DNA from: an uncultured virus (IMG/VR IMGVR_UViG_3300028586_000757)
Taxonomy: Duplodnaviria; Heunggongvirae; Uroviricota; Caudoviricetes
Length of the DNA: 41,144 bases
Reading direction: 5' to 3' (one strand)
IMG/VR virus record: IMGVR_UViG_3300028586_000757
Position numbers and translations under genes: made by a program. The notes beneath the pieces are model-generated. The model did no database searches. It had not been told where the DNA came from and was given only the letters and a program-made list of their open reading frames with translations. How positions within the stretch are numbered: the first letter of the stretch is position 1; each line of letters starts with the position of its first letter. Shown one piece after another: positions 18,577 through 41,144 of this stretch.

Positions 18577-18796
18577 GTGTTCTCCAGTGACAGTGCTAGT
18601 TAAAGCGTGCTACGGGTGAGCATGTCAGTCTTTTAAAGACCGACAGGCACGCTCCCGCCAGGCTAAATACCTGCACTATCCTGTGAACATAATTTATTGA
18701 TTTGATATGCCCTTTAGACATTGTCGAGGAGTACCAAGTCAAGGTTGAGTACCACGAAGCTGAAGATTCGGATAAGTGGAATTCAATCGTTGTTTA

Positions 18797-18895
18797 ACTC
18801 GCAAGGGCAAACCTGTCGAAAGGCAGGGACGCAAAACCTCCGGTCTAACGGGAATGGCGAAAGCTGTTCTCCATGATAGCGGGGCTGCCGCAGGG
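18797..18895 (+). ncRNA. c-di-GMP-I (GEMM-I) riboswitch
   Basis: AGGGCAAACCTGTC-GAAA-GGCAGGGACGCAAAACCTCCGGTCTAA...ATGATAGCGGGGCTGCC: GAAA tetraloop, tetraloop receptor, and G20/A47/C92 equivalents as in the Vc2 aptamer. Confidence 0.95.
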
Positions 18896-18946
18896 GCAAT
18901 GGTGCCCCGGTGTCGGGACCTTGCATTCTTCTACCCGGAGATACAA

Positions 18947-20329
18947 GTGAACTTTCGATTCAACGCACTGGCCGCTGTCAGCATTTTCGCAACCCTGACC
19001 ATGGCTACCGGTGCCGCTCATGCAGCGCCGCACGAGCACCTGCAAGAAGTCGACCGCATGCTGGCCAAGGGCCGCGAGCACGTCAAACAAGAATTTGTCA
19101 TCGAGTTCAAAGACGGCGTGTCGCAAGCTGAAAAAGACGCAATTTTGCGCAACATGGGCGGCCGTCGGTCGGGCGTGCTGATGGCACGTCGTAACGCTCG
19201 CGGTAACGTGTCCGAGATGAACCTGGTTCGTGGCACCCGTGATATGCGTTCCATGATGACCGCGCTGAACGTCGACGACCGCGTCGCCTACGCGGAGCCG
19301 AACTGGGTCTACCACCCGCAGGCCGTTCCGTCGGACCCGTACGTCAAGCAGAACATGACCTGGAACATGTACGGTCCATCGACCTCGCCGTCGGCGCCGT
19401 ATGGTACCGGTGCCCTGGGCGCCTGGAATGCGAATCACACCTGCGGCAACACCCCGGTGTATGTCGGCGTGGTAGACGAAGGTATTCTTATTTCGCACCC
19501 GGACCTGAAGGCCAATATCTGGACGAACCCGTACGACCGTGCTAATGGCGCGGACGATGACGGTAACGGCTATGTCGACGATGTCAACGGCTACAACTTC
19601 TTCGACAACAACAACAATGTCAACGGTTCGGCTACCGAGCAGCACGGCACCCACGTTGCCGGCATCATCGGCGCCCAGGGCAACAACGCTGCAGGTATTG
19701 CGGGTATGTGCTGGAACATCAAAATCATTCCAGCCAAGTTCATGGACGCAAAAGGCGGTACTCTGGCCAACGCTATTCGCGCCATCGACTACCTGACGAA
19801 CCTGAAGCTCAAGAAAAACCTGCGTATTGTTGCAATCAACAACTCGTGGGGTGGCCCGGGCCAATCGCTGGCACTGCAGCAAGCCATCGAGCGTGCTAAC
19901 GACGCTGACATCCTGTTTGTGGCGGCCGCCGGCAACGGTGACGCCAATGGCATCGGCGTGAACAACGACGTTACTCCGACCTATCCCGCAAACTACAAGA
20001 CCGCAAACGTGATTTCGGTCGCGTCTATCGACCAGAACGGCATGCTGAGCAAATTCTCGAACTACGGCGCCACCTCTGTTCACCTGGCAGCTCCGGGCGG
20101 TAACATTCTGTCGACTATCCCGACCGCAAGCGGTGCCGGCTACGGCTACATGAGTGGCACCTCGATGGCCGCACCGCACGTGACTGCAGCAATCGCTCTG
20201 TACGCCGCGACTCACCCGCTGGCGAAGGCACCTGAAATCAAGGCTGCGATTTTGAACGGCGTACGTAAGACTGGCACCGTGTCGGGCACTACCATCACTG
20301 GCGGTATTCTGGACGTGTCGAAGTTCTAA
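18947..20329 (+). CDS. Secreted subtilisin-family (S8) serine protease with propeptide
   Basis: GTG at 18947 after GGAG; signal peptide ending AHA; VGVVDEG (Asp), HGTHVAG (His), AAAGN (oxyanion), GTSMAAPHV (Ser). Confidence 0.95.
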   Translation: MNFRFNALAAVSIFATLTMATGAAHAAPHEHLQEVDRMLAKGREHVKQEFVIEFKDGVSQAEKDAILRNMGGRRSGVLMARRNARGNVSEMNLVRGTRDMRSMMTALNVDDRVAYAEPNWVYHPQAVPSDPYVKQNMTWNMYGPSTSPSAPYGTGALGAWNANHTCGNTPVYVGVVDEGILISHPDLKANIWTNPYDRANGADDDGNGYVDDVNGYNFFDNNNNVNGSATEQHGTHVAGIIGAQGNNAAGIAGMCWNIKIIPAKFMDAKGGTLANAIRAIDYLTNLKLKKNLRIVAINNSWGGPGQSLALQQAIERANDADILFVAAAGNGDANGIGVNNDVTPTYPANYKTANVISVASIDQNGMLSKFSNYGATSVHLAAPGGNILSTIPTASGAGYGYMSGTSMAAPHVTAAIALYAATHPLAKAPEIKAAILNGVRKTGTVSGTTITGGILDVSKF

Positions 20330-20364
20330 ACGCGCTGCAGTTTCTGCTGAGAGCTAGAGTAGAG

Positions 20365-20395
20365 AAGCCCCCGCTTGCGGGGGCTTTTTCTTTTT
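20365..20395 (+). terminator. Intrinsic terminator (27 nt identical to 25580-25606)
   Basis: GCCCCCGC-TT-GCGGGGGC-TTTTTCTTT. Confidence 0.85.
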
Positions 20396-20570
20396 AGGGT
20401 AACGAGTCAGTATTTAAGCCAAGTTGTCTATACCTCGAGTGATTGCTTTACTTGCTAAATGTACTAATACGAACAATGTCCCATCCGGACGCAGCTGCTG
20501 CCGCGGCAAAAGGTGTCAAAAGCACACTACCCCGACGCTGCAGCTGGCAAAGTTACTGAACTGTGAGCCA

Positions 20571-23500
20571 ATGAATCGCTTGAAAAAACTCGTTAGCATC
20601 CTGCTCTGCTGGTCCATTGTGCTCCAGCCGGCACTCGCTGCCCAGCAGGAATACCGTATTCCGCTTCGCTCATCGAGCGCAGGCAATGGCAATCACGTTG
20701 ACCCGTCCGGAGGCTCTTCGTCGCCAATTGGGGATGGCGCAGGTGACGTCGATGTCGACACCGGTACCGAAGGGCCTGCTATTTCGTTTTCGCCAGACGC
20801 ACTCAAATTCGATGTTACGCGCGATACCGATTCTGTGCATTCGACGCTGCTAGTGAATAAGGGAGGCTCAAAAGCCAAGCTTTCGGGCTTTACATCCAAT
20901 CAAAATTTCAAGGTCAGCAGCTCTTGTCCAGCAAGTCTGCCGGCAGGGGACTCCTGCTCCGTGGTGGTTACTCGAGCGCCGTACGCAGAAAGCGGTGCTA
21001 AATACGACCTGAATGTGTTGGCCCCCGGCGCGGCCAAGCCCGCTGCACTACACCTGTCGACCTACACCCCAGGCGAGGGAGCTACTATCCTGGGCGTCGA
21101 CCGAGGCATCGTGGACCTTGGGGAAGTGGACCCAGGCGTCGCCACGTCCGGTAGCGCCATTCTCACCAACCTTGGTACATCGACAGTCAACTTGCGCGGC
21201 ATCGGGTCTTCCGGCCCATTCAACATTACGTCGAATTGCCCAGACAACCTGGCCCCGGGCGCAAGCTGCAATATCTCGGCGACCTTCGTGAGCTTTGTCG
21301 GTGGCGTTCAGACTTATGAGATGCGGCTCAAGGGCAGTGCGGTAGAAGATGGCTTGCCACTGACGTTCCGTGCAAAAGTATTTGCTAACCCGGTTATCTC
21401 GCCAGCGTTGGCCTTCAGCACTGACGTGCTGACTTTCGATAATGTGCCTGTTGGTCTGTCCGCACCAAAATCGGTAACGTTGAGCAATCCGGGCTCGGCG
21501 CCCGCCTATCTAAATCTTGCTAAGTTCGCATCTACCCCCGATTTCAGCATTCAGCACGATTGCCCGGATATCTTGGCTGCGAAAGCGTTCTGCACATTTA
21601 ACGTTTCCTACAAAGTTACGCAAAAAGGTGTCTCGGCGGCGTACACCCTGGCGGCAGAAGCGCAAAACGACATGTCGGCCATGGTCATGCTGCAGGGCCA
21701 CGGTGAGCGAGGCGAACCTGGCAATACGAGTTCCGCAATTAGTGCGACTCCGGCACTTTTACAGTTCGGAGATGTCCTTGTTGGTCAGACTGTGCAACTC
21801 ACCAGCAAAATTACCAACGACAGTACTTCTACTGTTACCGTTAACAACGCAGAAGTGACCGCTGAGCACGGTGGATTCACTCAATCCAACGACTGTTCGG
21901 CACCGTTGCTGCCTAATGCGTTCTGCACCGTCACGATTACCTTTAAGCCGACACTCACGAAAACAATAGGTGGAGGACTGTACCTAGGCAGCACGGGTGG
22001 CGCCGCGTCGATTGGTTTCACCGGCACAGGGCGCGCGGCTGTTATGGCGCTTTCGCGAGAAGCGCTTGATTACGGCCTCGTGACGGCTGCCGGACCGCTG
22101 CAAGCGCTCGGACTTAGTGTGGGCAATAAAGGCAATCTGGACTTGACGGGGTTCTCTGTTGTCAATACCGACCCTCGCCTAATGGTGGACGCCAGTCGCT
22201 GCAGTTCGACCCTCGTGCCGCTGGCTTCCTGCACGATGGCAGTTCAGTACTACCCGGCTAGCGACGGTCCGTTCAAAACGAGTTTCCAGCTGAAATCGAA
22301 CAATGGAGGTATCCGTACTGTCGAGGTAAGCGGGACTATCGTTCGCCTGGCGGTTTCTCCTACCAGCATCGACTATCAGGGGCAGCAAGCGAATTCGTAT
22401 TCCGACCGGGACATTACGGTCGTCAACGAAGGCCAGCGTGAGGTGGTGCTTGATGGCATTGGTCTCGTTACGGAAACCGGCGGATTCTCTCAGTCGAACA
22501 ACTGCGGCAATGTCCTCAAAGCCGGCGCTTCCTGCACGATTGTTTCCAGGTTTGGCCCTGGCGGCGAGAACAGCTACTCTGCGGCCATCGTATTGAGCGT
22601 CGCACAGAGCACGGCGGCAGTCATTTACCTCAAAGGTGAGGGGGCTCCTTCCAAATTGGCGCTCAGCTCGAATTACCTGCGGTTCTCAGAGACTAACGTA
22701 GGGAAAACCAGCCCTGCACTTAGTGTCATCGTGACGAATCCGACTGACACGCGTATCTCGTTTACCGGCATCAGTGTGGTAACCAACCCAAAAGAGTTTG
22801 GACAGTCCAACAACTGCGACGAAGGACTGGACGCAGGTGCAAGCTGCACGATTACCGCCCAGTGGACTCCGGTAACCCTCTCAGGACCGGACGGCATGAT
22901 TGGTATCGCGACCTCGAGTGGCGGCTATGCTGTCAACATGTCCGGGATGGTGACGGAGCCAGTGCCAGTCATTGAACCGCCCACTGGTGGGGAGCAACTT
23001 CCGCCTCCAGTGATTACCCCTGATAAGGTGACACACTTCAGTATCAAGTTCCTTGATACTGAAGTCGACGCCTACAGCGCTGTTCGCAGCATCAAATTCA
23101 GCAACAAAGGCACAGGTCCGCTGACTGTGCAAGGCGTTTCCATCGCAACGGGCGCAGGTGACTTCAACCAGTCCAATGACTGTGCAGAGCCCATTATGCC
23201 TGGCGGTTACTGCACCATTTCGATGGTATTCCGTCCGTCGCAAAGCGGTACTCGAACTGGCAGTGCTGTAATTGTCAGCGATTTTGGAACGTATTCTTTC
23301 GACCTGACCGGTAATGGCCTGGGTCCACTCGTTCAGCTTTATGCAGAATCTTCATCCGACTATGGCCAGGTGCTGGTGGGAAGCACGAATCTGCGTAAGT
23401 TCATCTTCCAAAACACAAGTGCTACTCCGGCAAACAAGGTTCAGGCAACCCTGACAGCTAACGCAGCTACGCTTGTGGAAAATACCTGTGGCACTGTAGC

Positions 23501-25556
23501 CGCCCCTGTGTCTGTCGCAGGTGGGGCCACTTGCTCCATGACGGTTAAGTATGCGCCGACGGCACGTGGTGCCTTGGAAGCCGAGCTGGCCGTTGCGTCG
23601 GAGGCGTCTAACGGTGTGCAAAAGCTTGTACTATCGGGCTACGCTTCCCAATCCGAAGGGCAGTTGACTGCAAACACTTCCACGGATTTCGGTGAAGTTG
23701 CAGTGGGAACCACGTCCACCTTGAAGTTCACCCTCACTAATACAGGCGACTTCAACATGATGGACATCCGCGCATCGGTAACGGGCACGGGCATGAGCAT
23801 CATCAGCAACGGTTGCGGCACCATCGACTCGCTGGGCACCATGGGGCCTGGAAAGATTTGTTCGGTAACCGTTCAATTCGCGCCGAAAGTGATAGGGGCA
23901 GCGCCGGGCAAGCTTTCCATTACCTCGAGCGCAGCTAACGGTGTCTCCGAGTTGCAATTGTCGGCTACGGGTGCTGCAGTTACCAGTAAATACGCACTTC
24001 TCTTTAACGGTGCGAACGGCTCTACAACTATCTCGGATACCGGAACGGGTTCGGCATGGTACTCGTACAATGGTGCATCCCAGACTACCCAGTTCTACCG
24101 CGAAGGCACGGCGTCGTTGAATCTCAATGGCGTCAATCAAGCCGTGTTTGGCCCATCCATCGACTTCACGGAGGATTTCGCAGCTAGCGCATGGGTCCGT
24201 CCCGCTGCGCTTAGTGGCGGCCTCATGACTATCGTCGGTAAATGGAACCAGGCAGGAGGCCTGGGCGGTTGGCTCTTGAATACGGATGGGTCGGGCGCGT
24301 TGCAATTCTATTGGGCACCGTTCTCCGTAATCGGGCCGATGCTGTCAGTACCGAACGTCATTAAAACGAACACGTGGACCCACGTGGCAATGACTCGCCA
24401 AGGCAGCAGCTTCAGCTTGTACGTGAATGGTACTAAAGTCGCTACGACTACGAATGCGGGCAATCTTTCGAGTCTAGATGTCCCCGTGTCTGTAGGCAGC
24501 TACTATACCGGCGCCGGTACACTAGGTGCGAACACCTTCTTCAATGGCAAAATTGATGAAGTACGTATCACGACGGGCAATGGTGCTGCAAACTTCACTG
24601 TGCCAGCACAGACTCTTTCGGCTACAGGCACCGATTTCGACATGGTTAGTACGGACAGCGTAACCGTCCGAAATGTCGTGGTGCGAAATGGCACAGTTGG
24701 GCCGGTAACGCTCGACACGGTGGCTGCTTCCGGCGATTACACCGTCACAGACGCATCGTCCTGCACGTCGAAAACCCTTGCAGCTGGGGCGACCTGTACC
24801 GTATCAGTCAAGCTTACCCCTACAGCGGAGGGTGCCCGTCCAGGCAACCTGACGCTCACGTTTGATGCGCACGGCTCCCAGGTCATCAATCTGACGGCTA
24901 CAGCACGCGTTATCGACGCGAACATCAACAACGTTGTGCTGCTGATGCATATGGACGGAAACTTGGCAGATGTTCGCGGGCACGTTGCAACGGGCACGGG
25001 CCTGACGTTTGCCGCATCCCCGCTCGGAGGCCAAGCGGCGGTGCATAAAGGCAATTCCTCGCATATTTCGATTCCGAACTCCTCGGAGTTCGACTTTGGT
25101 ATGGGTGACTTTACCATCGAAGTGTCGGCTGCGGTTACGTCAACGTATGGGGCCATCATCGGCCGTCACACTTGGCCAGGCAGCTTCAACGCCGGTTCCG
25201 ATTTTCTGCTCTATGGTCAGTCCAATGGCATGTTATGGTTTTTCGCGAACACTTCTACCGGAACGGTGCTGCTACAGGACATGATGCCGACGCCGACCGA
25301 TGGGAAGTTCCACCACTATGCAATTGTTCGTTCCGGCAGCAGCTTCACGGTGTATGTCGACGGAGTAGCAAAGGGGTCAGCATCAAACACCGGTGCGCTC
25401 AGCTTCACGCCAGGTCTGCCAATTATGACGAATGTCTGGCAGGGCGACGCTGGCAGTGGCTTCAACGGGCAGTTTGATGAACTGCGAATTACGAAGGGAA
25501 TCGCACGATATAAGCAGAATTTCGTGCCACCCACCAGGGCATATCCGGACCAGTAA
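20571..25556 (+). CDS. Giant secreted adhesin-like protein A: 10 Ig-like (choice-of-anchor D/ASH-type) modules, LamG, 1 module, LamG
   Basis: ATG at 20571 gives a Sec signal (MNRLKK..ALA); 11 repeats of N.G...F...C...L..G..C...V.F.P; LamG motifs WTHVA.TR....LYVNG..G.IDE.RI. Confidence 0.9.
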   Translation: MNRLKKLVSILLCWSIVLQPALAAQQEYRIPLRSSSAGNGNHVDPSGGSSSPIGDGAGDVDVDTGTEGPAISFSPDALKFDVTRDTDSVHSTLLVNKGGSKAKLSGFTSNQNFKVSSSCPASLPAGDSCSVVVTRAPYAESGAKYDLNVLAPGAAKPAALHLSTYTPGEGATILGVDRGIVDLGEVDPGVATSGSAILTNLGTSTVNLRGIGSSGPFNITSNCPDNLAPGASCNISATFVSFVGGVQTYEMRLKGSAVEDGLPLTFRAKVFANPVISPALAFSTDVLTFDNVPVGLSAPKSVTLSNPGSAPAYLNLAKFASTPDFSIQHDCPDILAAKAFCTFNVSYKVTQKGVSAAYTLAAEAQNDMSAMVMLQGHGERGEPGNTSSAISATPALLQFGDVLVGQTVQLTSKITNDSTSTVTVNNAEVTAEHGGFTQSNDCSAPLLPNAFCTVTITFKPTLTKTIGGGLYLGSTGGAASIGFTGTGRAAVMALSREALDYGLVTAAGPLQALGLSVGNKGNLDLTGFSVVNTDPRLMVDASRCSSTLVPLASCTMAVQYYPASDGPFKTSFQLKSNNGGIRTVEVSGTIVRLAVSPTSIDYQGQQANSYSDRDITVVNEGQREVVLDGIGLVTETGGFSQSNNCGNVLKAGASCTIVSRFGPGGENSYSAAIVLSVAQSTAAVIYLKGEGAPSKLALSSNYLRFSETNVGKTSPALSVIVTNPTDTRISFTGISVVTNPKEFGQSNNCDEGLDAGASCTITAQWTPVTLSGPDGMIGIATSSGGYAVNMSGMVTEPVPVIEPPTGGEQLPPPVITPDKVTHFSIKFLDTEVDAYSAVRSIKFSNKGTGPLTVQGVSIATGAGDFNQSNDCAEPIMPGGYCTISMVFRPSQSGTRTGSAVIVSDFGTYSFDLTGNGLGPLVQLYAESSSDYGQVLVGSTNLRKFIFQNTSATPANKVQATLTANAATLVENTCGTVAAPVSVAGGATCSMTVKYAPTARGALEAELAVASEASNGVQKLVLSGYASQSEGQLTANTSTDFGEVAVGTTSTLKFTLTNTGDFNMMDIRASVTGTGMSIISNGCGTIDSLGTMGPGKICSVTVQFAPKVIGAAPGKLSITSSAANGVSELQLSATGAAVTSKYALLFNGANGSTTISDTGTGSAWYSYNGASQTTQFYREGTASLNLNGVNQAVFGPSIDFTEDFAASAWVRPAALSGGLMTIVGKWNQAGGLGGWLLNTDGSGALQFYWAPFSVIGPMLSVPNVIKTNTWTHVAMTRQGSSFSLYVNGTKVATTTNAGNLSSLDVPVSVGSYYTGAGTLGANTFFNGKIDEVRITTGNGAANFTVPAQTLSATGTDFDMVSTDSVTVRNVVVRNGTVGPVTLDTVAASGDYTVTDASSCTSKTLAAGATCTVSVKLTPTAEGARPGNLTLTFDAHGSQVINLTATARVIDANINNVVLLMHMDGNLADVRGHVATGTGLTFAASPLGGQAAVHKGNSSHISIPNSSEFDFGMGDFTIEVSAAVTSTYGAIIGRHTWPGSFNAGSDFLLYGQSNGMLWFFANTSTGTVLLQDMMPTPTDGKFHHYAIVRSGSSFTVYVDGVAKGSASNTGALSFTPGLPIMTNVWQGDAGSGFNGQFDELRITKGIARYKQNFVPPTRAYPDQ

Positions 25557-25788
25557 TCACGGCCGGCTAGTGCCCGAGTGCCCCCGCTTGCGGGGGCTTT
25601 TTCTTTATAGGGTCACGATTTAGGTGGTTTAAGACAAGTTTCCTATAAATATTCTATAGGCGTTTTACTTGCTAAACGCACTAATACAAACAATGTCCCA
25701 TCCGGACCCGGGTGCCGCCGCGGAAAATGATGTCAAAAGCATACATTCTCCAACGCTATTGCTGGCAAAGTTACTGAACTGTGAACCA

Positions 25789-30780: not shown

Positions 30781-30800
30781 CAGCCCCAGCAGTATCCTGA

Positions 30801-30829
30801 AAAGCCTCGCAACGCGGGGCTTTTCTTTT
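30801..30829 (+). terminator. Intrinsic terminator
   Basis: AAAGCCTCGC-AAC-GCGGGGCTTT then TCTTTT. Confidence 0.8.
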
Positions 30830-30906
30830 GCCAGGCACAGGCAGAGAGCATTGGACCCAAAGCGCAAAGTCTATACGTGATAGGTTAACTAAAATTAGGA
30901 CACATC

Positions 30907-31941
30907 ATGTACGACATCAAAAAAGCTTTTCAGTTCGACATCAACGCTGAAATCGCTGCCATGGTCGAGTTTCTCTCGACACGCTGGAAATCGGTTGAAA
31001 ACGTTGAAGCACTGCTGCGTGTCATCGCACCGCTGGCAGAGAAGAACTCCCAAAGTGCTATCCAGGACAGCGAGCTCTCGATATTTCTGATGGACCAGGA
31101 GCGCGCGCGCGAAAAGGCCCTGAAAGCGGTCGACGAATCCGGCGGCATGCTGCGGTTCTACGACCAAGCATGCCAACTGCTAGAAGGACTTGAAAGACAA
31201 GTAGGCAAGGTCTACCGGCATGGTAACGATAGGCTCTACGAGACCTATGAGCCGGCCATGAAGTTTATCAAGAAAGCGCTTGCTACGCCCGAGATGGCCC
31301 CGCTGAAGAAAGCCCAGCCGCTCCAGATGACCCAGATGATGCGGCACTATCATGAAAATGACGACGCTTGGGACGCTGCCCTGGAAAATGAATTTGATGA
31401 CCGTCAGCTGTTCAAGGGCGCGAACACCGCCACGGGCGGGCAGGGTGGATTTGTCAGTGCCGTTAGCCTCATTATGGTGGTTCAGGTGAAGGATACCCAT
31501 AACACGGCGCCTATCGACCAGCTCATCCGCGGCGCATATGACCATCTCGTCAATGTCTACCGGGCGGTCAACGGCCATGCCGTGTTGGGCGAACTGAAAA
31601 AGTTCTTCTCTCAACTGGACCCGAAGCAGCCGGTGTTTGTCCTGAACTTCACACCGGCGCACCGGCTGACCAAAGTGTTGTACTCGCTGGCGCAGGAGAA
31701 TCAACGTGGCATGGCCGAGGAGAACCCCGAAGAGGCGTATCGGGAAGCCGTCGCTGAACACAAAACGGCGACGCCACTCAGTGAAGAGGAGCTCAAGGTT
31801 CGCCGTGCGGGTGCCGCTGGCCTCATCAGCCAAATGTTGAAAAACGCGCTCAAGCCTGAAACCCCAAAACAGGCAAAAGAGCGAGAAATTCGAGATGCAC
31901 GTGACCGCCAAGCGGTGGATAACATCCTGAAATCGCTGTAA
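30907..31941 (+). CDS. Hypothetical alpha-helical protein (344 aa)
   Basis: CTATAC at 30871, TAGGAC RBS, terminator at ~31963-31991. Confidence 0.8.
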   Translation: MYDIKKAFQFDINAEIAAMVEFLSTRWKSVENVEALLRVIAPLAEKNSQSAIQDSELSIFLMDQERAREKALKAVDESGGMLRFYDQACQLLEGLERQVGKVYRHGNDRLYETYEPAMKFIKKALATPEMAPLKKAQPLQMTQMMRHYHENDDAWDAALENEFDDRQLFKGANTATGGQGGFVSAVSLIMVVQVKDTHNTAPIDQLIRGAYDHLVNVYRAVNGHAVLGELKKFFSQLDPKQPVFVLNFTPAHRLTKVLYSLAQENQRGMAEENPEEAYREAVAEHKTATPLSEEELKVRRAGAAGLISQMLKNALKPETPKQAKEREIRDARDRQAVDNILKSL

Positions 31942-32212
31942 ACACAGCGTTGTATCATTCAGCAGCCCACCTTCGTGTGGGCTGTTTTATTTCGTCTGCT
32001 ATGCATAATCAAGCGCACTGGGCTGCTTTATTGCATTTGATGTTCCTAATAAGCACCAGTACGTGATAAATATTGCGACCTATACATTTTAAACATTTGC
32101 CCCTACCACTCTAGCTGACTTTATAGCTTCGAGTAAATACATTCAGTCCTGCTCGTGCCACCTCGCTCGCCGACGCTACTTGGGGCTTGAAAACTACGGA
32201 TAGTGCAACTCA

Positions 32213-35200
32213 ATGAAAAAACTAAAACAACTTATTGTCCAAGCGCTCATCACAACGTTGGTCTTGCAGCCAATTTTGGCATGTGCTACGGAGTATCGAA
32301 TTCCGCTCAAAGTGCGAGCGACATCTGATACGACTAACCCGAGCAACGGCCCGGGTACCGGCAATGGTGACGTTGAAGTCGGGGATGGCCCAAATGCTCC
32401 TGCTCTGGTATTTGCTCCCGCCAAACTAACGTTTGACGTGAGCCGAGCTTCTGACACGCTGCGAACGAGTCTGCTGACTAACGAAGGAGGCGGACCGGCA
32501 GTCCTAAAGGGCTTTGTGTCAAATTCTTCATTCTCCATTCACCACGACTGCCCCATCTCTCTCGCACCAGGTGATTCGTGCTTAGTGTCCGCCACTCCGG
32601 CAGAGGGCTCAACTGCCGGCGCCAGCTACAGCATGATGGTCATGGCCCAAGGCACTGCGAAATCCAGTGTCTTGCAGCTGTCGACAGTGAAAAAAGTCAT
32701 CGGGGAGGGTATGCCCTCGCTCGTCCTGAGTCAGGATATGGTGAACCTGGGAGAGGTCGCGCCCGGTGTCGCAACCGCCGGCAGCGTTGTACTCTCTAAC
32801 GAGGGAAAAGGTGCTGCGAACCTGAGGGGGATTGGGTCCAACAGTGAGTTTACAATTACGTCCAACTGCCCTAATGACCTTGCACCTGGGGCTAGCTGCA
32901 CGATAGCCGCAACGTTTGTCAGCACGATTAACAATACACGTAGCATTAGGTTGCTACTTCGCACTGCTACCGAAGATGACGGAGTTCCTCTGACTTTCTA
33001 TGCGAAGGTCATCGGTGGAATTACGCCAGCACCGGACTTGGCATTTAGCGCGGATGCACTCCCATTCGGTACGGTTGACGTCGGAGCTTCGGTAACAAAG
33101 CAGGCCATCCTGTTCAACCGGGGTACTGCTGCGGCTGAGCTAGCACCGTTTTCTTCCACAGAGGACTTTTCTGTGAGCAGCAACTGCCCAAGCAGCCTTG
33201 CTGCGGCCAGTCAATGTGACATTTCTGTAGCCTTTACAGGGCGCGTTTCAGGCACCCACCCGTCGCACGTTCTGGCAGGTGCTGTAAAAGGCGCTCCTGT
33301 CGAGAACGCTACCAAACTATACCTTGGCGGTGCTGTGAAGGGCTCACCAGTTGAGCAGCACGGCCCTCAACTGACATTTGTGCCAGATACTGCCGAGTTC
33401 GGTACGCTACCCGTTGGCCAGGCCACCTCAAAACAAGTGGTGCTCTCTAACACTGGGGATGAAGTGGCAATCATTCAGCACATTGACGGTGACTCCGCCG
33501 CCGGCGAATTTTCCCAGAAAAACGACTGCCCCAGTACGCTTGTACCGGGGGCATTCTGCACCTTGACCGTAACACACCTACCGGCTGCACAAGACCTGCG
33601 GATTGGCCGCATTACGGTCTATACCGGAAATGAACAAAAATCTATTCTAAGCGCATGGAGCTTTGGCGTCCAAGCGACTCTCGGCGTGTCGCCGGCAGCT
33701 GTTGAATACGCTGGCGTTGCACTGACAAACAAGTTGCCTGCTAAGCCCGTGGCGGTTGGTAATGGCGGAAATATCCCACTCACGGGAATTACTGTCACGA
33801 ATAAGGACCCCCGCTTGGTTATCGATATGGGAAGCTGCAAAGAATCCTTGGCGCCTAAACATAACTGTACTGTGCTGGTAAGTTACAGCCCCGCTAGTGA
33901 TGGCCCTTTCAGTACCAGCTTCCAAGTCCATTCCGCAAACGGGGGGTCGGTAACCGTTCCTGTTACAGGGACGGCTTTCCGACTGTCTACCAACCCCGCA
34001 ACACTGTCGTTCCCTACTACGATTGTTGGAACTGCTGCGGCTGACCAGTATGCAACCCTGACGAACGAAGGACAGATGGCCGTCAAATTGGACGGTATCC
34101 AGATGGGGTACGGGGTCGAAAGTTTTAATCAATCCAATAACTGCGGAACTGTCCTCGCAGCCGGAGCATCCTGCACTATCACTGCGCGCTTTATCCCTAA
34201 TGAGGCCAAGCCTCGCGGTGGAACCATCATCGTCTCCGTAGGCCAGTCCCTTGCCGCATATGTGGCACTGGATGGCGTGGGCACTCAGCCGAGGCTGACG
34301 TTGTCGAGCAGCTCGCTCGGATTCCCTTCCATCAATGCGGGGCGCACGTCAGAGCCGCTTAGCGTGATTGTATCCAACGACACTGCGTACCACGCAACTG
34401 TCACAGGCATTAGCGTGGTCGAAAACCCTGCGGAATTCGCGCAGTCGAACAACTGCGATACAGCACTGCCGCCTGGCTCCAGCTGCACTATCAACGTGCA
34501 GTGGTCGCCGAAGTCGAAGACCCTTAGCACGGGTTCGGTAGTTATCGAGAACTCAATGGGCACCGATGTCATCGCCTTGGGCGGGCTGCCGACGCAGCCT
34601 ATCGGGGGTATCGAGGCTCCAGGTGTCCCAGGGGGAGGCAGTGCGCCTGGAGGAGGTGGGGGTCCTGATGAGCCGTATGTCATTACGTTCCCAGATACCC
34701 AAGTAAGCGTATCCAGCGGAGTACGCAACATTACGTTCTCGAACTCTGGCAATGGGCCTCTGGCAGTCAAGGGTATCTCGGTCGTATCGGGAATGACCGA
34801 CTTTGCTCAGTCCAATAACTGCGGCACAGCCATCCCCGCAGGGTCCTCATGCGTCATTTCGATGAAATTCACGCCGGCGGCTGCCGGCAAACGTACTGGG
34901 GTCATCTTCATTTCCAGCGAGACGGGAGACTATCAGTTCAACCTCTCGGGCAACGGCATCGGCTCGGTTGTACAGCTTTACGCAGAGTCGTCGACAGACT
35001 TCGGTGAAGTTCTTGTGGGAAGCACCGCCCAGCGTACATTCACGTTCCGAAACAATGGTACGGTTCCCGCACAGAATGTGAAAGCATCGGTTGACGGTAC
35101 GGGTGTATCACTGGTCTCCAACACATGCGGTTCGGATGACGCTTTGAAAGTCATTCAACCGGATAACAGCTGCTCTATGGTGGTCGAGTTCGCACCGAAG

Positions 35201-37195
35201 GCTGCTGGAAACCTTGATGCACTACTTGCCGTCGACTCGAATGCCGCGAATGGAACTCAGCGACTGAGCCTGTCCGGTAAGGCCATTCACGCTGTTGGCC
35301 GACTCTCTGCTGACTCGGGCACTAGCTTCGGCATCGTCTCGACCGGCTCCACTAGTTCGCTCACGTTCACCTTCCTCAATAAAGGCGATGCTCCGGCCAC
35401 CGGGATGTACGCAAAGATTGATGGTACGGACATGCGCTTCAGCGCCAATAGCTGCGGTGCAGAAGATTCACGAGTCTCGCTAGGCGTGGACAAAGTATGC
35501 ACAATGACCGTGAACTTTGCTCCAACAGCACAGGGGCAAATGACAGGTACCCTCACCGTGTACTCGAGCGCGACCAATGGGCCTCAGTCGGTTGAACTGT
35601 CTGGTGGTGCAAAGTTCTCTACCAATGGCTATGCCCTGCAGTTCAACGGTTCTGACGGCGCCACGAATCTGGTCGATGTGGGAACTGGCTCGAAATGGAC
35701 GTCATTCAACGGCGCGTCCATTACCACCAGCATCTACAAGGAGGGCTCCGGCTCCCTCAACTTCAATGGTGTGAACCAAGCCGTGTCTGGCCCGACCATT
35801 GCCTACACGGGAGACTTTGTCTTCAGTACGTGGATTCGCCAGACTGCTCGCCCAGGAAACGCTGCAACTATTGTCGCGCAGTGGGACCAATCCTCCGGTC
35901 GCAGCACCGGAGGATGGGCGCTAAGCTCCGACGCAGCCGGCCGATTGTTAGTCAGTTGGGCCCCTGTTAACATGAACTCGGCATTTATGTCGTCAACGGC
36001 TGCTCTACCGCTAAACAAGTGGACGCATGTCGCGCTTGTTCACGCAGGCACTTCGTTCACGGTGTACATGGACGGCGCGGTAGTAGCTTCAGGCACTGGG
36101 CAGGGCCAGCTGGAAGCGCTGAATGTCCCAACGTCCCTGGGCAGTTACTTCAACTTTAGCCGTGTAATGGGCGCTGGTGAGTTCTTCAAAGGTCAGATGG
36201 ACGATGTTCGGATTGTCACGGGAAGTTCGACGTTTGACTTTAACAGCCTTCGTTCGACACTTTCGGCACCTAGCACCGACTTCGGCAGCGTAGGGGTCTC
36301 CGAGCGCGTCACAAAGCAAGTCGTTGTTACCAATAGTGGCGCAAGGCCGGCAACGGTTGCCACGGCAACAGCCTCGGGAGAATTCTCGGTCACCGATGTG
36401 GCGGCCTGCACGGCAAAAACCTTGGCTCCAGGTGCAAGCTGCAGCGTAACTGTCGCGTTCCAGCCAAGTGGTAACGGCGTGCGAACGGGGTCTATGACGA
36501 TTTCGTCTGACTCGGTCAACCCGGACCTGACCGTTTCGTTGACCGGCACGGGGACAGGGCTGACTGCGCTGAAACTCCTGGGCGAAGCCAGTGACATTGT
36601 TGACAGCGCGGGAGCCACTCTTACAAAGGGGGGCGCGATAGCCCTCACATCGAACAACCCTGTCGACGGAACCGGTTCGCTGCTATTCCCAGCCATCGGC
36701 GCGTATCTTGTAACTCCGGCGTCTACCAAGTACACCTTGGCCGCGAATGACTTTACGATTGAGGCGTGGGTTCGCCCGACCGCTAGCGGCAAGGCGGCTG
36801 TAATGTCCAACTTCCCAGATGGGACTTGGCTGCCTAATTCATGGGCAGTCACGACTTCGCATCCCAACGTGGGGAATAAGGCCGCGCTTTTCAGTAACAA
36901 CTACGACTACAACTACCCGGTTATCGCGTCTAAATCAGATATTCCACTCAATAAGTGGACCCATATTGCGATTACCCGGACTGGAGCAACCTTCCAACTG
37001 TATGTGAACGGAGCGCTGGAGTCGACTGCCACCTTTGCAGGAGCAGTTGACGCAGGTGCGACAATCGCACGGCAGCTTGGTATCGCTCGAATGGACGCAG
37101 GGTGGGGCTTCGTAGGACAAATGGACGACGTACGAGTGGTCAAAGGGCAGAACATATACTCGGGCACATTCACTCCGCCTGTTAACATGCAATGA
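32213..37195 (+). CDS. Giant secreted adhesin-like protein C, same 11-module + 2 LamG architecture, more divergent
   Basis: Signal peptide, EYRIPLK, 11 Cys-paired modules, two LamG domains. Confidence 0.9.
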   Translation: MKKLKQLIVQALITTLVLQPILACATEYRIPLKVRATSDTTNPSNGPGTGNGDVEVGDGPNAPALVFAPAKLTFDVSRASDTLRTSLLTNEGGGPAVLKGFVSNSSFSIHHDCPISLAPGDSCLVSATPAEGSTAGASYSMMVMAQGTAKSSVLQLSTVKKVIGEGMPSLVLSQDMVNLGEVAPGVATAGSVVLSNEGKGAANLRGIGSNSEFTITSNCPNDLAPGASCTIAATFVSTINNTRSIRLLLRTATEDDGVPLTFYAKVIGGITPAPDLAFSADALPFGTVDVGASVTKQAILFNRGTAAAELAPFSSTEDFSVSSNCPSSLAAASQCDISVAFTGRVSGTHPSHVLAGAVKGAPVENATKLYLGGAVKGSPVEQHGPQLTFVPDTAEFGTLPVGQATSKQVVLSNTGDEVAIIQHIDGDSAAGEFSQKNDCPSTLVPGAFCTLTVTHLPAAQDLRIGRITVYTGNEQKSILSAWSFGVQATLGVSPAAVEYAGVALTNKLPAKPVAVGNGGNIPLTGITVTNKDPRLVIDMGSCKESLAPKHNCTVLVSYSPASDGPFSTSFQVHSANGGSVTVPVTGTAFRLSTNPATLSFPTTIVGTAAADQYATLTNEGQMAVKLDGIQMGYGVESFNQSNNCGTVLAAGASCTITARFIPNEAKPRGGTIIVSVGQSLAAYVALDGVGTQPRLTLSSSSLGFPSINAGRTSEPLSVIVSNDTAYHATVTGISVVENPAEFAQSNNCDTALPPGSSCTINVQWSPKSKTLSTGSVVIENSMGTDVIALGGLPTQPIGGIEAPGVPGGGSAPGGGGGPDEPYVITFPDTQVSVSSGVRNITFSNSGNGPLAVKGISVVSGMTDFAQSNNCGTAIPAGSSCVISMKFTPAAAGKRTGVIFISSETGDYQFNLSGNGIGSVVQLYAESSTDFGEVLVGSTAQRTFTFRNNGTVPAQNVKASVDGTGVSLVSNTCGSDDALKVIQPDNSCSMVVEFAPKAAGNLDALLAVDSNAANGTQRLSLSGKAIHAVGRLSADSGTSFGIVSTGSTSSLTFTFLNKGDAPATGMYAKIDGTDMRFSANSCGAEDSRVSLGVDKVCTMTVNFAPTAQGQMTGTLTVYSSATNGPQSVELSGGAKFSTNGYALQFNGSDGATNLVDVGTGSKWTSFNGASITTSIYKEGSGSLNFNGVNQAVSGPTIAYTGDFVFSTWIRQTARPGNAATIVAQWDQSSGRSTGGWALSSDAAGRLLVSWAPVNMNSAFMSSTAALPLNKWTHVALVHAGTSFTVYMDGAVVASGTGQGQLEALNVPTSLGSYFNFSRVMGAGEFFKGQMDDVRIVTGSSTFDFNSLRSTLSAPSTDFGSVGVSERVTKQVVVTNSGARPATVATATASGEFSVTDVAACTAKTLAPGASCSVTVAFQPSGNGVRTGSMTISSDSVNPDLTVSLTGTGTGLTALKLLGEASDIVDSAGATLTKGGAIALTSNNPVDGTGSLLFPAIGAYLVTPASTKYTLAANDFTIEAWVRPTASGKAAVMSNFPDGTWLPNSWAVTTSHPNVGNKAALFSNNYDYNYPVIASKSDIPLNKWTHIAITRTGATFQLYVNGALESTATFAGAVDAGATIARQLGIARMDAGWGFVGQMDDVRVVKGQNIYSGTFTPPVNMQ

Positions 37196-37211
37196 CGTAA
37201 GGTCATTCGGG

Positions 37212-37237
37212 AGCCCGGTTTCGCACCGGGCTTTTTT
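37212..37237 (+). terminator. Intrinsic terminator
   Basis: AGCCCGGT-TTCGC-ACCGGGCT then T-run. Confidence 0.8.
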
Positions 37238-37300
37238 AACAAATACGGGGTGGTGTTTGTTCGCTATAGTTGGAGCAGACACTCACAAAAAGGACAATAT

Positions 37301-38338
37301 ATGGCCAAATCATCGGCACCCGCGGCGCAACCCGCACGTCAAGGCTTTTACCGTGTCACTCTGGAAGACGACTCGGAACTCATCGCAGAATGGCGTGAAA
37401 TTGTGAAGGCCGAAGGCAAGCGCTGGTGGCAATACGTCAGCGACAGCCCGACGGCAGCGAAGGTACCGGTTCCGCTCGAGGGCGTCGTCGACTTCGCTCC
37501 TGCAGACAAGAAAGCAGTTGAAAAGCTGCTCAAGCGCGAGCTGTCGGAAGAAGAAAAGCTCGAAGCGGCATACACGTCGTTCATGTCCACCGAATGCCTG
37601 AACCATCGCAACCACTGTCCAGTTCCGCCAGGCCGGCAAGTACAGGTCGGTGACGAGTTGGAAGTGGGCCTGCTACGCGACGTCAAGGCAGTCGAACTGC
37701 GTGACGAAGGGCAAGTTATCATCTACTCGTTCCGGGACGTGAATCACAACTACGGCAACCCTCAGGACCTGGGCATCAAATATCGCGCGGCGCACTGGAC
37801 TGAAGTTCTCATCCGGAAGCACATCCGTGACGACACGCTCACGCTGAACTCGCGCATGTTTAATGCTTACCGCAGTTCGACGCTGGACTCGGTTATCAAC
37901 CGCATGCTGCGCGGCGTGGACGACGCTCCCGACTATCAGCGCGGCTATGCGTGGTCCGCTAAGGACAAGGAGCTGTACCTGGACTCGGTTTTCGCCGGCC
38001 GGGAGCTGGGTCGGTTCATCTTTATCCGCCGCGGCTATCCGCACCGAGACCAAATTCTGGATGGCAAACAGCGCCTGACCTGCCTGTACGAGTTTGTAAC
38101 CAGCCAGCTGGCCTACAACGGTGTCTACTGGCATGAGTTGAGCCCACGTGACCGGGACCGCATCGAAAACCGAAGCATCCAGTTCGCAGAGCTGCATCAG
38201 GACGAATTCACCCGCGCGGACCTCCTCCAGATTTTCCTCGAGGTCAATGCCGCTGGCGTGCCACAGACCGAAGAGCATCTGGCACGCGTGCGTGCAATGC
38301 TTGAAGAAGAGCGTACCAAAAACGCGGCTTCAGCGTAA
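37301..38338 (+). CDS. DUF262 domain protein, paralogue 2
   Basis: ATG at 37301 after AAGGAC; PDYQRGYAW, LDGKQR; colinear with 17225-18283 over the full length. Confidence 0.85.
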   Translation: MAKSSAPAAQPARQGFYRVTLEDDSELIAEWREIVKAEGKRWWQYVSDSPTAAKVPVPLEGVVDFAPADKKAVEKLLKRELSEEEKLEAAYTSFMSTECLNHRNHCPVPPGRQVQVGDELEVGLLRDVKAVELRDEGQVIIYSFRDVNHNYGNPQDLGIKYRAAHWTEVLIRKHIRDDTLTLNSRMFNAYRSSTLDSVINRMLRGVDDAPDYQRGYAWSAKDKELYLDSVFAGRELGRFIFIRRGYPHRDQILDGKQRLTCLYEFVTSQLAYNGVYWHELSPRDRDRIENRSIQFAELHQDEFTRADLLQIFLEVNAAGVPQTEEHLARVRAMLEEERTKNAASA

Positions 38339-38487
38339 CGTCCTCGACGTAGCATATTCTCGCCCCCGACTCGTTCGGGGGCTTTTTTTTTGCGAAGACA
38401 TCTAAAAAGTAAGGGCGCATTACAGATTTTTTAATGCGTAGTAGCTATTCAGATGAGGAACCATTTTCTCAACCCTGAAAGGACTGT

Positions 38488-39264
38488 ATGGAATTTCTGC
38501 TGGACCCTAGCCTGTGGATGGCGTTCGCCATGCTGACTGCACTGGAAATCGTGCTCGGCGTCGACAACATCATCTTCCTGACCATTCTGGTCAACCGCCT
38601 GCCGGCCGAACGACGCGACCAAGGACGCAAGTTCGGTCTCGGCTTCGCCTTGGGCTCGCGCCTGGCGCTGCTGTGCTCGCTATCGTGGGTCATGGGTCTG
38701 ACGGCACCGCTGGTCACTCTGTTCGGCCACGGCATCAGTGGGCGCGACCTCATCCTTATCGGCGGGGGTCTGTTCCTGCTGTACAAGGCATCTCACGAGA
38801 TTTTCATTGAAGTCGAAGCACGCGAACAAGACGGTGTGGAAGGCATGGAAGCTAAAAATCCAGCCGCGGCTGGTGCCAAGCTGTTCTGGGGCACCGTCGT
38901 CCAGATTGGTATCATCGACATCGTCTTCTCGCTGGACTCGGTCATTACTGCCGTTGGCATGGTGAACAAGCTGCCGGTGATGGTTGCTGCAGTGGTGGCT
39001 TCGTGTGCCATCATGATGAAGGCGGCTAAGCCAATTGGTGAATTCGTCGAACGTCACCCTTCGGTGAAAGTCCTGGCACTGTCGTTCCTGACCATGGTCG
39101 GTATGGCTTTGATTGCCGAAGGCTTCCATGTCGAAGTACCGAAAGGCTACATCTACGCCTCGATGGTCTTCTCGCTGCTGGTGGAATTCTTGAACATCCG
39201 TGGCCGTGCCAAGCGCCTGGCGGCTAACGCTGTTAAGAACACCCAAGCCGACGCGACGGTGTAA
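38488..39264 (+). CDS. terC: TerC-family integral membrane protein
   Basis: LTALEIVLGVDNIIF, GRDLILIGGGLFLLYKA, DIVFSLDSVITAVG, PKGYIY signatures; no CBS domains. Confidence 0.92.
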   Translation: MEFLLDPSLWMAFAMLTALEIVLGVDNIIFLTILVNRLPAERRDQGRKFGLGFALGSRLALLCSLSWVMGLTAPLVTLFGHGISGRDLILIGGGLFLLYKASHEIFIEVEAREQDGVEGMEAKNPAAAGAKLFWGTVVQIGIIDIVFSLDSVITAVGMVNKLPVMVAAVVASCAIMMKAAKPIGEFVERHPSVKVLALSFLTMVGMALIAEGFHVEVPKGYIYASMVFSLLVEFLNIRGRAKRLAANAVKNTQADATV

Positions 39265-39416
39265 CAACAGGCACGAGCATCACATGATTTGCTAAACGGC
39301 TGCCTTCTGGCGGCCGTTTCTTTTTCGTGCCATACCAGCATGTGCGTATTTATAGTCCGGGTCTCTATACGGAACAACTATTATCAAGTCCGCATGATTC
39401 ACTTAACCGTCCCATA

Positions 39417-41144
39417 ATGCACAACTTCCCACCCTTAAAAAAGCTGTCTTCGCTGGTTCTTCTGGCGCTAGCTCTTCAACCGTTCGCGAGTAAAGCGGCG
39501 ACCTACGAATTCAAGCGCCCACAGGCGACATTGGTTGTGGTGGGGTCCACTGTTGTACCTTCGGGTGCGGGGGGCGCTACAAAAGCATCGTCAGCGCGAT
39601 GGAGCACTACGAGCCTGGTGTTCGGTGGCGTGGCTGTGGGGTCCAGCTTGACGAAAAACGTCACCCTCTACAATGACGGCGATGGCGCAGGTGACTTCTC
39701 AGCATTCGCTGGCCTGGCGCCCGGGCTAACCGCCGATGCCACTACATGCACGAGCGTCGCCCCGGGTACGGGCTGCTCGGTTCGGTTCACCTTTACCCCT
39801 GTGGGCTCGGTTGCCTTGTCGGCACCTAATGTCTACCCGGCTGCAGGTGCGCACTCCAATGTGCTCAACGTAACCGGCCAGGGGCTCTTGACTGCCGTGA
39901 GCCTGTCGACAGGCACGCTTGATTTTGGCAGCATCCCGCTCTCGACGACGTCCAGTGCAAAGTCCGTGATGCTCTCGAATTCGGGGAATACTGACGTCTC
40001 GATTGGTGCACTGAACTTCTCGGGCCAGTACGTGGCCTCTACTACGTGTGGTTCCACGCTGGCCGCGGGAACTTCCTGCTACGTAAACGTCTCCTTCAAG
40101 CCAACTAGTTCCGGCACTCAGCCCGGCTCGGTATCGCTGGGAACAGGCGCTGGGGCGCAAAACGTGACGCTGACAGGCGTCGGGCAGAGCGCTACGGGTG
40201 AGCTAACAGTGGCATCTGGGTACTCCTCAGACTTTGGCACTGTGTCGGCCGGCAGCTCCGCAACACGCTCATTTGTGTTCACGAATACCGGGGCAGACTC
40301 ATTAGCTGGCGTGTACGCCGGCGCTGCTGGCACAGGTTTCTCGGTTGCCTCCGTGGGGAACACCTGCGGTACGCAGGCTGCTCCTGTAACTCTCGTTGCG
40401 AAGGCGAGCTGTCAATTCAACGTCGTCTTTAATCCTGCCAATGCAGGACCTGTAGCGGGCGCGCAAGCAAGAGTGACTAGCACTGCAACCAACTCCCCGT
40501 CGGTGCTTTCGCTGACCGGGACGGGTCAAGCCTCTGGTACTACGTATACCGTGGGCTTCAACGGCACACAAGGCAGCACGACGTTCACAGATACGACGTC
40601 GTTCTCGAGCTGGGCTTCTGTGGGTGGTGCTGCTTTGACCACCTCTACATTCAGCGAAGGAACTTCGGCGGTCTCCTTGAACGGCAAGGGTCAAGCAGTG
40701 GTTGGCCCTGTCATCAACCTGGTCAACGATTTCACGGTTCAAGTGTCGGTTCGACCCACGGCATATCCAGGAGGCACCTCCGCTATTGTGGGTCAGTGGC
40801 AGCAAACGGTGGGGCAGGGCGGTTGGCTTGTCTTCATGAACAGCAACGGAACAATCTCGTTCGAGCTCGGGGCGATTTCGGATTACGCCGCGCAGATGAC
40901 GTCTACCACCGCGGCTCCATTGAACCAGTGGACGAAGGTGACGGTAACTCGGCAAGGCTCCACGTTCCGTATGTACCTCAACGGCGTATTGAACACCACC
41001 TATACGAACGCAACTGTTGGCCGCTCTATTGGAGTGAGCACTTCCATGGGTTCGTACTACTCGGGCAACCTGGGCGCTGGATATTGGTTCACAGGTCAAC
41101 TTGATGACCTCAAGATTCAGCTCGGCACGGCAGTGACACCCTGA
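39417..41144 (+). CDS. Short secreted adhesin-like paralogue D: 3 Ig-like modules + 1 LamG
   Basis: ATG at 39417, signal peptide (LALQPFASKA), three Cys-paired modules, LamG homologous to the first LamG of A-C; TGA at the window end. Confidence 0.88.
   Translation: MHNFPPLKKLSSLVLLALALQPFASKAATYEFKRPQATLVVVGSTVVPSGAGGATKASSARWSTTSLVFGGVAVGSSLTKNVTLYNDGDGAGDFSAFAGLAPGLTADATTCTSVAPGTGCSVRFTFTPVGSVALSAPNVYPAAGAHSNVLNVTGQGLLTAVSLSTGTLDFGSIPLSTTSSAKSVMLSNSGNTDVSIGALNFSGQYVASTTCGSTLAAGTSCYVNVSFKPTSSGTQPGSVSLGTGAGAQNVTLTGVGQSATGELTVASGYSSDFGTVSAGSSATRSFVFTNTGADSLAGVYAGAAGTGFSVASVGNTCGTQAAPVTLVAKASCQFNVVFNPANAGPVAGAQARVTSTATNSPSVLSLTGTGQASGTTYTVGFNGTQGSTTFTDTTSFSSWASVGGAALTTSTFSEGTSAVSLNGKGQAVVGPVINLVNDFTVQVSVRPTAYPGGTSAIVGQWQQTVGQGGWLVFMNSNGTISFELGAISDYAAQMTSTTAAPLNQWTKVTVTRQGSTFRMYLNGVLNTTYTNATVGRSIGVSTSMGSYYSGNLGAGYWFTGQLDDLKIQLGTAVTP

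Follow-up and report, generated by a model that had tools for sequence, protein, structure and literature searches.

A predicted class I c-di-GMP riboswitch ahead of the gene of a secreted subtilase on a giant, phage-like element

The DNA analysed here, called the window throughout, is the whole 41,144-nucleotide record IMGVR_UViG_3300028586_000757 of an uncultured virus assigned to the Caudoviricetes (IMG/VR). Within it, a canonical class I cyclic di-guanosine monophosphate (c-di-GMP) riboswitch probably controls the gene of a stand-alone secreted pre-pro-subtilase of peptidase family S8, the setting being a phage-like element of at least 623 kb that consists mostly of orphan genes. A preliminary description of positions 18797-41144, prepared from the nucleotide letters without database searches, had named the riboswitch and the protease, and had further proposed that the protease acts on four giant secreted proteins with immunoglobulin-like (Ig) repeats and LamG domains encoded downstream of it. 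The analysis reported below, computational throughout, bears out the riboswitch and the secreted protease, and it leaves the tie between the protease and the giant proteins as a possibility for which their adjacency is the evidence.

The riboswitch, its leader and the subtilase gene

The leader and the protease gene comprise the following features.

18302-18325, plus strand: intrinsic terminator of the upstream DUF262/ParB-like gene (17225-18283), with a 9-bp stem and a T run (inverted repeat I2)
18532-18540 / 18547-18555: perfect 9-bp inverted repeat CATTTCCAT / ATGGAAATG, arms 6 nt apart, overlapping the -35 hexamer of the next feature
18548-18576, plus strand: promoter-like site TGGAAA-17-TAAAAT with TG, a consensus match only
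18797-18893, plus strand: riboswitch aptamer of the c-di-GMP-I clan, matching RF03167 over the full length of the model, with A at the '47' position
18894-18946, plus strand: putative expression platform, comprising a hairpin (18894-18909), an anti-aptamer segment (18901-18924) and the Shine-Dalgarno sequence GGAG (18937-18940)
18947-20329, plus strand: gene of the secreted pre-pro-subtilase of 460 amino acids, with signal peptide, fervidolysin-like N-prodomain and S8 catalytic domain
20362-20389, plus strand: strong intrinsic terminator after the protease gene, with a 12-bp stem and then a T run

The whole window was scanned against Rfam with cmscan at the gathering threshold, as the preliminary description had suggested, and a single match rose above it, to RF03167 (c-di-GMP-I-GGC), with 64.5 bits against a cut-off of 59 and an E-value of 3.9e-13. 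The match lies on the coding strand in the 5' leader of the protease gene and ends 53 nt before the GTG start codon at 18947, in agreement with the clear c-di-GMP-I aptamer that had been placed about 50 nt ahead of a secreted S8 gene. At the same position a second family of the c-di-GMP-I clan (CL00126) also passed its own cut-off. A permissive scan of the whole window, with E up to 1, added three matches below threshold, from unrelated families that include no riboswitch; the window carries one riboswitch.

The fact that the top Rfam model is the GGC variant RF03167 and not RF01051 counts against a canonical aptamer, and it favours an RNA of the GGC variant class, the ligand of which would be other than c-di-GMP. 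The letters GGC presumably stand for the three nucleotides that contact the ligand, the intercalating A being replaced by G. At the column concerned, where the RF03167 consensus reads GGACGCG, the window has GGGACGCA, that is, A in place of G (GGACGCA), and the G for A after GACGC by which the variant is told is absent from the window aptamer. The same A follows GACGC in three aligned canonical RF01051 aptamers from one betaproteobacterial genome (57.5-86.5 bits), and the flanking conserved blocks AGGGCAAACC, found in those three aptamers as well, and CUGCC are canonical in the window. In view of these features, and of the other clan family that passes its own cut-off at the site, membership of the GGC class is most improbable. 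Because A occupies the distinguishing column of the GGC model, as it does in canonical aptamers, c-di-GMP is the expected ligand, and the RNA is expected to be an ordinary canonical c-di-GMP-I aptamer. The residues G20 and C92 are described as conserved and ligand-binding in the abstract of PMC9049102.

The aptamer is kept in a run from a second study (run X2), in which one contig of 1,542 nt covers positions 18751-20293 with 70 differences (about 95% identity). The indels listed for this contig, at 18853, 18860, 18862 and 18866 only, all fall in the peripheral hairpin 18850-18872. Furthermore, in two relatives of the protease, one of the same 90% cluster and one 88% identical, the gene calls extend into the leader, and the translated leader RCRDLAFFYPEIQ is unchanged in both; their signal peptides differ from that of the window.

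The reading frame of the protease is the open reading frame (ORF) 18776-20329, with its likely start at GTG 18947 and GGAG (18937-18940) six bases before it. Pfam assigned the product to Peptidase_S8 (PF00082) at 4.2e-57 and to the Fervidolysin N-terminal prodomain (PF22148) at 4e-07, and the motifs VVDEG, HGTHVAG and GTSMAAPH, which we take to be the S8 Asp, His and Ser motifs, respectively, are all present. The N-terminus, read by eye, resembles a Sec signal and ends AHA-AP, and the nearest solved structure is that of the collagenolytic exoprotease deseasin MCP-01 (PDB 3VV3; E 3.3e-64 over residues 146-458). The protease would be exported by the Sec route, matured by removal of the prodomain as in other subtilases, and active outside the cytoplasm. 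Both Pfam matches and the signal-peptide-like N-terminus accord with the secreted S8 protease of the preliminary description, and the terminator that it had placed between the protease and the adhesin-like genes was found at 20362-20389.

From the terminator at 18302-18325 onwards the DNA forms an AT-richer leader region of 470 nt, the G+C content being 0.475 in 18001-19000 vs about 0.57 elsewhere. Transcription would start in this AT-richer region, possibly at the promoter-like site 18548-18576, the sole site of its kind upstream of the riboswitch. The inverted repeat 18532-18555 may be an operator, in which case it would add a second, transcriptional input to the protease gene. Downstream of the aptamer, no terminator-like site was found between 18893 and 18947; no U tract stands behind any platform helix, and the hairpin 18894-18909 is followed by GGUGUCGGG, with no U run. 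As the U tract is missing, we infer control of translation, of Rho-dependent events or of mRNA stability rather than intrinsic termination. The output would most likely be translation initiation at GGAG/GUG (18937-18949), with effects through Rho or mRNA stability as the other candidates.

The predicted folds of the leader are alternatives of the usual two-state kind. The unconstrained fold (-66.5 kcal/mol, z -2.4) pairs segment 18901-18924 with the 3' half of the aptamer and with its 5' GCAAGG, whereas the fold in which the aptamer pairs are enforced reaches -45.7 kcal/mol and is 21 kcal/mol weaker, the energy of the ligand being uncounted. The nascent aptamer would accordingly be either bound to c-di-GMP or unfolded by pairing of 18901-18924 with its 3' half. 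An additional pairing found by hand, between CUCCGG of the aptamer and the Shine-Dalgarno CCGGAG, lay 4.6 kcal/mol above the minimum and was set aside.

Two features of the leader weigh against a riboswitch-controlled protease gene as it is read here. The promoter match lies where shuffled sequences yield more such matches than the DNA itself (4 found vs 8.1 expected), and the Shine-Dalgarno sequence is predicted to be paired in either fold (unpaired probability 0.03 vs 0.02), which yields no output mechanism. Since its accessibility is equal in both folds, the sign of control is not readable from the sequence.

A covariance model built from four aligned aptamers was run over 174 loci with S8 homologues on 173 distinct contigs, namely 5 viral, 80 genome and 80 metagenome loci and 9 loci from one order. 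An aptamer directly upstream of the S8 gene and on the same strand was detected at two of the 174 loci, a lower bound given the narrow model, and Rfam assigns both to RF01051, with 47.2 bits at locus L103 and 42.4 bits at locus L096. A third candidate, L037, was weak (E 0.24) and unconfirmed. The two positive loci have these features.

L103, 9733-9880: aptamer and terminator upstream of S8, same strand
L096, 1302-1450: aptamer and terminator upstream of S8, same strand

L103 and L096 are unrelated metagenome contigs, and near-identical intrinsic terminators (GAGGCCCCGG and a T run) precede their S8 genes. The 5' arm of these terminators appears to share sequence with the aptamer's 3' strand, an arrangement that would make ON switches of them. 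In the sample of a Burkholderiales-type order, an S8 match at E <= 1e-60 was found in 8 of 401 genomes, with a riboswitch at none of the nine loci. The pairing of a riboswitch with an S8 gene is not special to the window locus, since L103 and L096 carry it without adhesins of the kind that follow the protease gene here. In the literature searches, no paper contained both 'c-di-GMP riboswitch' and 'subtilisin', and nothing specific emerged on c-di-GMP riboswitches of phages or on riboswitch control of S8 proteases.

The giant Ig/LamG proteins and their relation to the protease

Downstream of the protease gene, the window has the following features.

20571-25556, plus strand: A1, 1661 amino acids, with signal peptide, EYRIPL motif, 11 choice-of-anchor D Ig repeats and two LamG domains
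25580-25597, plus strand: terminator after A1, the core sequence of which is the same as that of 20362-20389
25789-30780, plus strand: A2, paralogue of A1, 75% identical overall and 30-34% in the terminal LamG domain (last 160 residues)
30907-31941, plus strand: orphan gene of 344 amino acids without signal peptide, between A2 and A3
31961-31986, plus strand: terminator-like hairpin after the orphan gene
32213-37195, plus strand: A3, 1660 amino acids, 41% identical to A1 and of the same architecture
37250-38338: DUF262/ParB-like gene, between A3 and A4
38488-39264: TerC/YkoY-family membrane protein gene, between A3 and A4
39417 to beyond 41144, plus strand: A4, a more distant paralogue (about 33-34% identical), the gene of which continues past the end of the window

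The complete paralogues A1 to A3 each contain 10-11 choice-of-anchor D repeats and two LamG stretches, and a Sec-type signal peptide, read by eye, stands at the N-terminus of all four window paralogues and of eight out of eight relatives; two of these proteins, with N-terminally truncated gene calls, keep its end only. A fifth paralogue, P0247, is encoded on the same contig outside the window. No sequence relative of A1 was found in the PDB. Of the array of four same-strand paralogous secreted Ig/LamG proteins in the preliminary description, the paralogy, the domains and the signal peptides stand; the contiguity does not, as the orphan gene, the DUF262/ParB-like gene and the TerC gene intervene.

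The variable adhesin tip described earlier is real and corresponds to the terminal LamG domain. In windows of 100 residues, A1 and A2 are 75-95% identical over residues 1-1200, 61-69% over 1201-1400 and 52% over 1401-1500, and it is the fall to 30-34% at residues 1501-1661 that places the tip there. The protein P0245 of a relative has an A2-like tip and is A1-like at residues 1201-1300, and the giant-protein family is therefore mosaic. At the opposite end, the motif [EQ]Y[RQ]IPL stands directly behind the signal peptide in 11 of the 12 family members, even at 32% overall identity, with a divergent form in A4, and it is followed by a linker rich in Gly, Ser and Asp (20640-20720 in the window, with the corresponding stretches of A2, A3 and the relatives). 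The motif might serve in sorting or anchoring. The adhesin-like proteins showed no cell-wall sorting signal. The family is well defined yet uncharacterised, with an N-terminal [EQ]Y[RQ]IPL, an Ig-repeat stalk and an exchangeable LamG tip, and it would be a recombining paralogue family of the kind expected of surface-binding proteins.

Upstream of A2 the sequence, terminator included, duplicates that upstream of A1. These duplicated 5' regions, together with the terminators at 20362-20389, 25580-25597 and 31961-31986, divide the protease and the adhesin-like genes into separate units. The giant proteins would accordingly be expressed from transcription units of their own, and no known riboswitch was found in the leaders of the A genes (Rfam, E up to 1). 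Between A2 and the orphan gene no terminator-like site was found, and for this reason the two are possibly co-transcribed; the orphan product itself had no match in Pfam, PHROG, NCBIfam or the Atlas.

Two near relatives bear on the conservation of the arrangement, the synteny check that had been recommended. A contig of 78,635 bp carries an S8 gene of the same 90% cluster, an adhesin gene at 80% and, at 96%, the 417-residue gene of the window that resembles gp334 of Bacillus phage G (see below). In run X2, portions of A1 and A2 are represented on further contigs, of which one joins 25555-25824, upstream sequence of the A2 type, to 20607-20795, coding sequence of the A1 type. This junction of 25824 to 20607 points to a different adhesin copy number, and it hints at recombination among the tandem adhesin genes and at copy numbers that differ from strain to strain. 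The arrangement is thus kept on the 78,635-bp contig and in X2. However, riboswitch-S8-adhesin synteny was seen only in near-identical relatives, and it is not independent conservation. A contig of 1,229,481 bp (1.23 Mb) has an S8 gene of 71% identity together with the 417-residue gene at 81%, and among the best 120 of 215 adhesin matches listed none came from this contig.

Several broader searches returned more distant material. Scans with the S8 protease of viral, genome and metagenome contigs, one of each, gave homologues of 31-50% identity only and did not reach the relatives of 88% and 71%, being swamped by the generic motif GYMSGTSM. The scan of viral contigs with the adhesin alignment gave matches to the LamG domain only, and the viral contigs contained no exact match to a 33-nt aptamer pattern. 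Among the 174 S8-homologue loci there was no strong match to the Ig-repeat array; a LamG protein occurs near S8 on one contig (listed as both L001 and L094), and L090 has a weak match to the Ig region (E 8e-6).

According to the preliminary description, the protease matures or sheds the element's own surface fibres. On such a reading, the giant adhesins next door would be trimmed, matured or shed by a protease under riboswitch control, and c-di-GMP would set surface attachment post-translationally. LapG/LapA and ZmpI/CD2831 would be the models for it. The protease and adhesin-like genes are adjacent on one strand, and they occur together with the gp334-like gene both on the 78,635-bp contig and in run X2. 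The linker behind [EQ]Y[RQ]IPL, present in all paralogues, is a conceivable cleavage region, and a protease gene that carries a class I riboswitch and lies next to the gene of its adhesin substrate has a published precedent (PMC6366702). Set against this, the arrangement is kept in relatives that hardly differ from the window, the 1.23-Mb contig contributes no adhesin among the matches considered above, and among the S8 loci the LamG protein of a single contig and the weak match at L090 are all that accompanies the protease. At L103, the one riboswitch-bearing S8 locus with long flanks, the largest ORF downstream of S8 is of 410 amino acids or less. The adhesin leaders have no known riboswitch, and among solved structures the protease comes closest to a collagenolytic exoprotease of broad action. 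With separate transcription units as well, the maturation or shedding of the fibres is left unsupported, and action of the protease on the adhesins is unlikely.

A fuller version, in which a huge phage or phage-like giant replicon reads host c-di-GMP via a captured riboswitch and times the export of a subtilase that remodels the element's own variable-tip adhesins, thereby switching infected cells between sticking together and dispersing, appears very unlikely. The giant proteins might instead be virion fibres, that is, receptor-binding proteins of a huge phage, with the protease a virion or lysis-associated enzyme. Their exchangeable C-terminal LamG tip and mosaic paralogues do resemble phage receptor-binding proteins, and similar LamG domains occur in many proteins of phages and jumbo phages (71 phage records; 80 viral loci). 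The phage matches are, however, limited to the LamG part, at most 26% of A1, and the Sec-type signal peptides on the four window paralogues and eight relatives are unexpected for virion proteins assembled in the cytoplasm. A virion role is therefore regarded as highly improbable, and the preferred reading is that of a riboswitch-controlled secreted protease gene next to separately expressed, adhesin-like genes.

As to the genes among the giant paralogues, NCBIfam names the TerC/YkoY family as riboswitch-controlled; upstream of the TerC/YkoY gene no match to yybP-ykoY or any other RNA family was obtained with E up to 1. Two DUF262/GmrSD_N (ParB-like) paralogues (17225-18283 and 37301-38338), which are 54% identical over 335 residues, bracket the riboswitch, S8, A1, A2 and A3.

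The nature of the element

The window's own proteins are recorded on contigs of 410,524 and 623,534 bp. A Pfam match (E <= 0.001) was obtained for four of the 28 ORFs upstream of the riboswitch, namely a 2OG-Fe(II) oxygenase, a prepilin peptidase, DUF262 and one that stands below Pfam's own cut-off. No tRNA gene was found in the window, and megablast of positions 1-20400 against phage and plasmid records gave no DNA match. The gene that bears most directly on the affiliation of the element is the following.

15104-16357, minus strand: ORF of 417 amino acids, nucleoside-deoxyribosyltransferase-like/NUDIX (gp334-like)

This ORF matches only five of 50,697 phage records, and these belong to genomes of 485-642 kb: LR745208.1 (485 kb; 43% identity over 95% of the protein), Bacillus phage G (gp334; two records) and two uncultured phages (595 and 642 kb). 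In LR745208.1, the homologue adjoins two tandem DUF262 genes, as in the window. The top phage match of the DUF262 gene is a 309-kb jumbo phage, and an ORF of 224 amino acids matches 109 records of the phage collection. An ORF of 407 amino acids had no phage match, and the scan of viral contigs with the 417-residue protein returned nothing. No RF01051 match was obtained in LR745208.1, in a search of which the controls were also silent. A strict core aptamer pattern matches three IMG/VR contigs only, of about 40-45 kb.

Two observations tell against a phage. Within the window there is no phage hallmark gene (terminase, major capsid or portal) and no replication hallmark, and homologues of the 417-residue gene and of S8 lie on contigs of 1.2-1.5 Mb, a size that to our knowledge exceeds any phage genome described. 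On balance, the element is somewhat more probably a huge phage than anything else, the alternatives being another giant or plasmid-like replicon and a chromosomal island or part of one. The probably mobile element of the preliminary description is plausible; it has at least 623 kb and a few genes in common with huge phages, and no hallmark gene lies in the window.

Relatives of the 417-residue gene were also detected in assemblies of bdelloid rotifers and on metagenome contigs as large as 1.5 Mb, and one jumbo-phage homologue of DUF262 is annotated as a DefenseFinder protein. A lone type IV prepilin-peptidase (Peptidase_A24) gene, 8560-9345, lies in a run of orphan genes with no pilin or secretion gene recognised nearby; it may bear on the exit route of the element's secreted proteins. 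Two adjacent small paralogous orphan genes, 9386-9739 (117 amino acids) and 9810-10169 (119 amino acids), are clearly similar by eye.

Riboswitches have been described as rare in phages, and the only two c-di-GMP-I cases known to McCown et al. 2017 (PMC5473149) both lie in prophages of C. difficile (Clostridioides difficile). Should the element, of at least 623 kb, prove to be a huge phage, it would exemplify a virus that senses a lifestyle signal of its host directly and thereby controls a secreted enzyme.

Comparison with known systems

With the huge phages, that is, Bacillus phage G and uncultured phages of 485-642 kb, the window shares the 417-residue gene, and with LR745208.1 also the DUF262 synteny; it differs from them in having no DNA similarity to any phage record and no structural or replication hallmark gene. 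Deseasin MCP-01 (3VV3) and related secreted subtilases are closest to the catalytic domain of the protease. No C-terminal extension is seen in the window protein, and the literature searches brought up no case of deseasin MCP-01 under riboswitch control.

Among riboswitches, the window aptamer belongs to the same clan as those of RF01051 (c-di-GMP-I, or GEMM-I), the prototype of which we take to be Vc2 of Vibrio cholerae. It has the conserved blocks and the A after GACGC in common with them, as well as its place in a 5' leader, where the gene that follows encodes a secreted protein. It differs in its best score, which is for the sister model RF03167, in a long extension of the second hairpin, and in its location on a giant phage-like element. 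Unlike the aptamers of L103 and L096, it has no intrinsic terminator behind it.

In the Lap system of Pseudomonas, LapG is a cysteine protease, LapD a protein receptor (GGDEF-EAL) and LapA an RTX adhesin with type I export. Only the general logic is common to this system and the window as proposed, namely that c-di-GMP acts through a protease on the release of a giant adhesin. The window, unlike Lap, has an S8 serine protease, an RNA sensor and Sec signal peptides, and none of the Pfam matches of the 36 window ORFs scanned was to GGDEF, EAL or RTX. In none of its defining parts does the locus match a Lap system.

The closest precedent is the C. difficile circuit of ZmpI/PPEP-1 (CD2830) with CD2831 and CD3246, as presented in the relevant part of PMC6366702. 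There, c-di-GMP represses zmpI, the mRNA of which has a class I riboswitch, and induces the adhesin genes CD630_28310 and CD630_32460, which have class II riboswitches, and ZmpI/PPEP-1, encoded next door, cuts these adhesins off the cell surface. In view of this precedent, the RNA-based analogue of Lap control suggested in the preliminary description is no novelty. A class I riboswitch on the gene of a secreted protease beside adhesin genes is common to both systems. In contrast, C. difficile has a zinc metalloprotease, sortase-anchored adhesins and class II riboswitches, whereas the window has an S8 subtilase, no riboswitch on the adhesin genes and no sorting signal that was seen; c-di-GMP-II was not found elsewhere in the window with E up to 1. 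The protease-adhesin link, at present hypothetical, would if true extend the logic of ZmpI to Gram-negative-type systems and to mobile elements. What is more unusual in the window is its setting on a giant, probably viral replicon, together with the uncharacterised family of giant proteins with variable tips.

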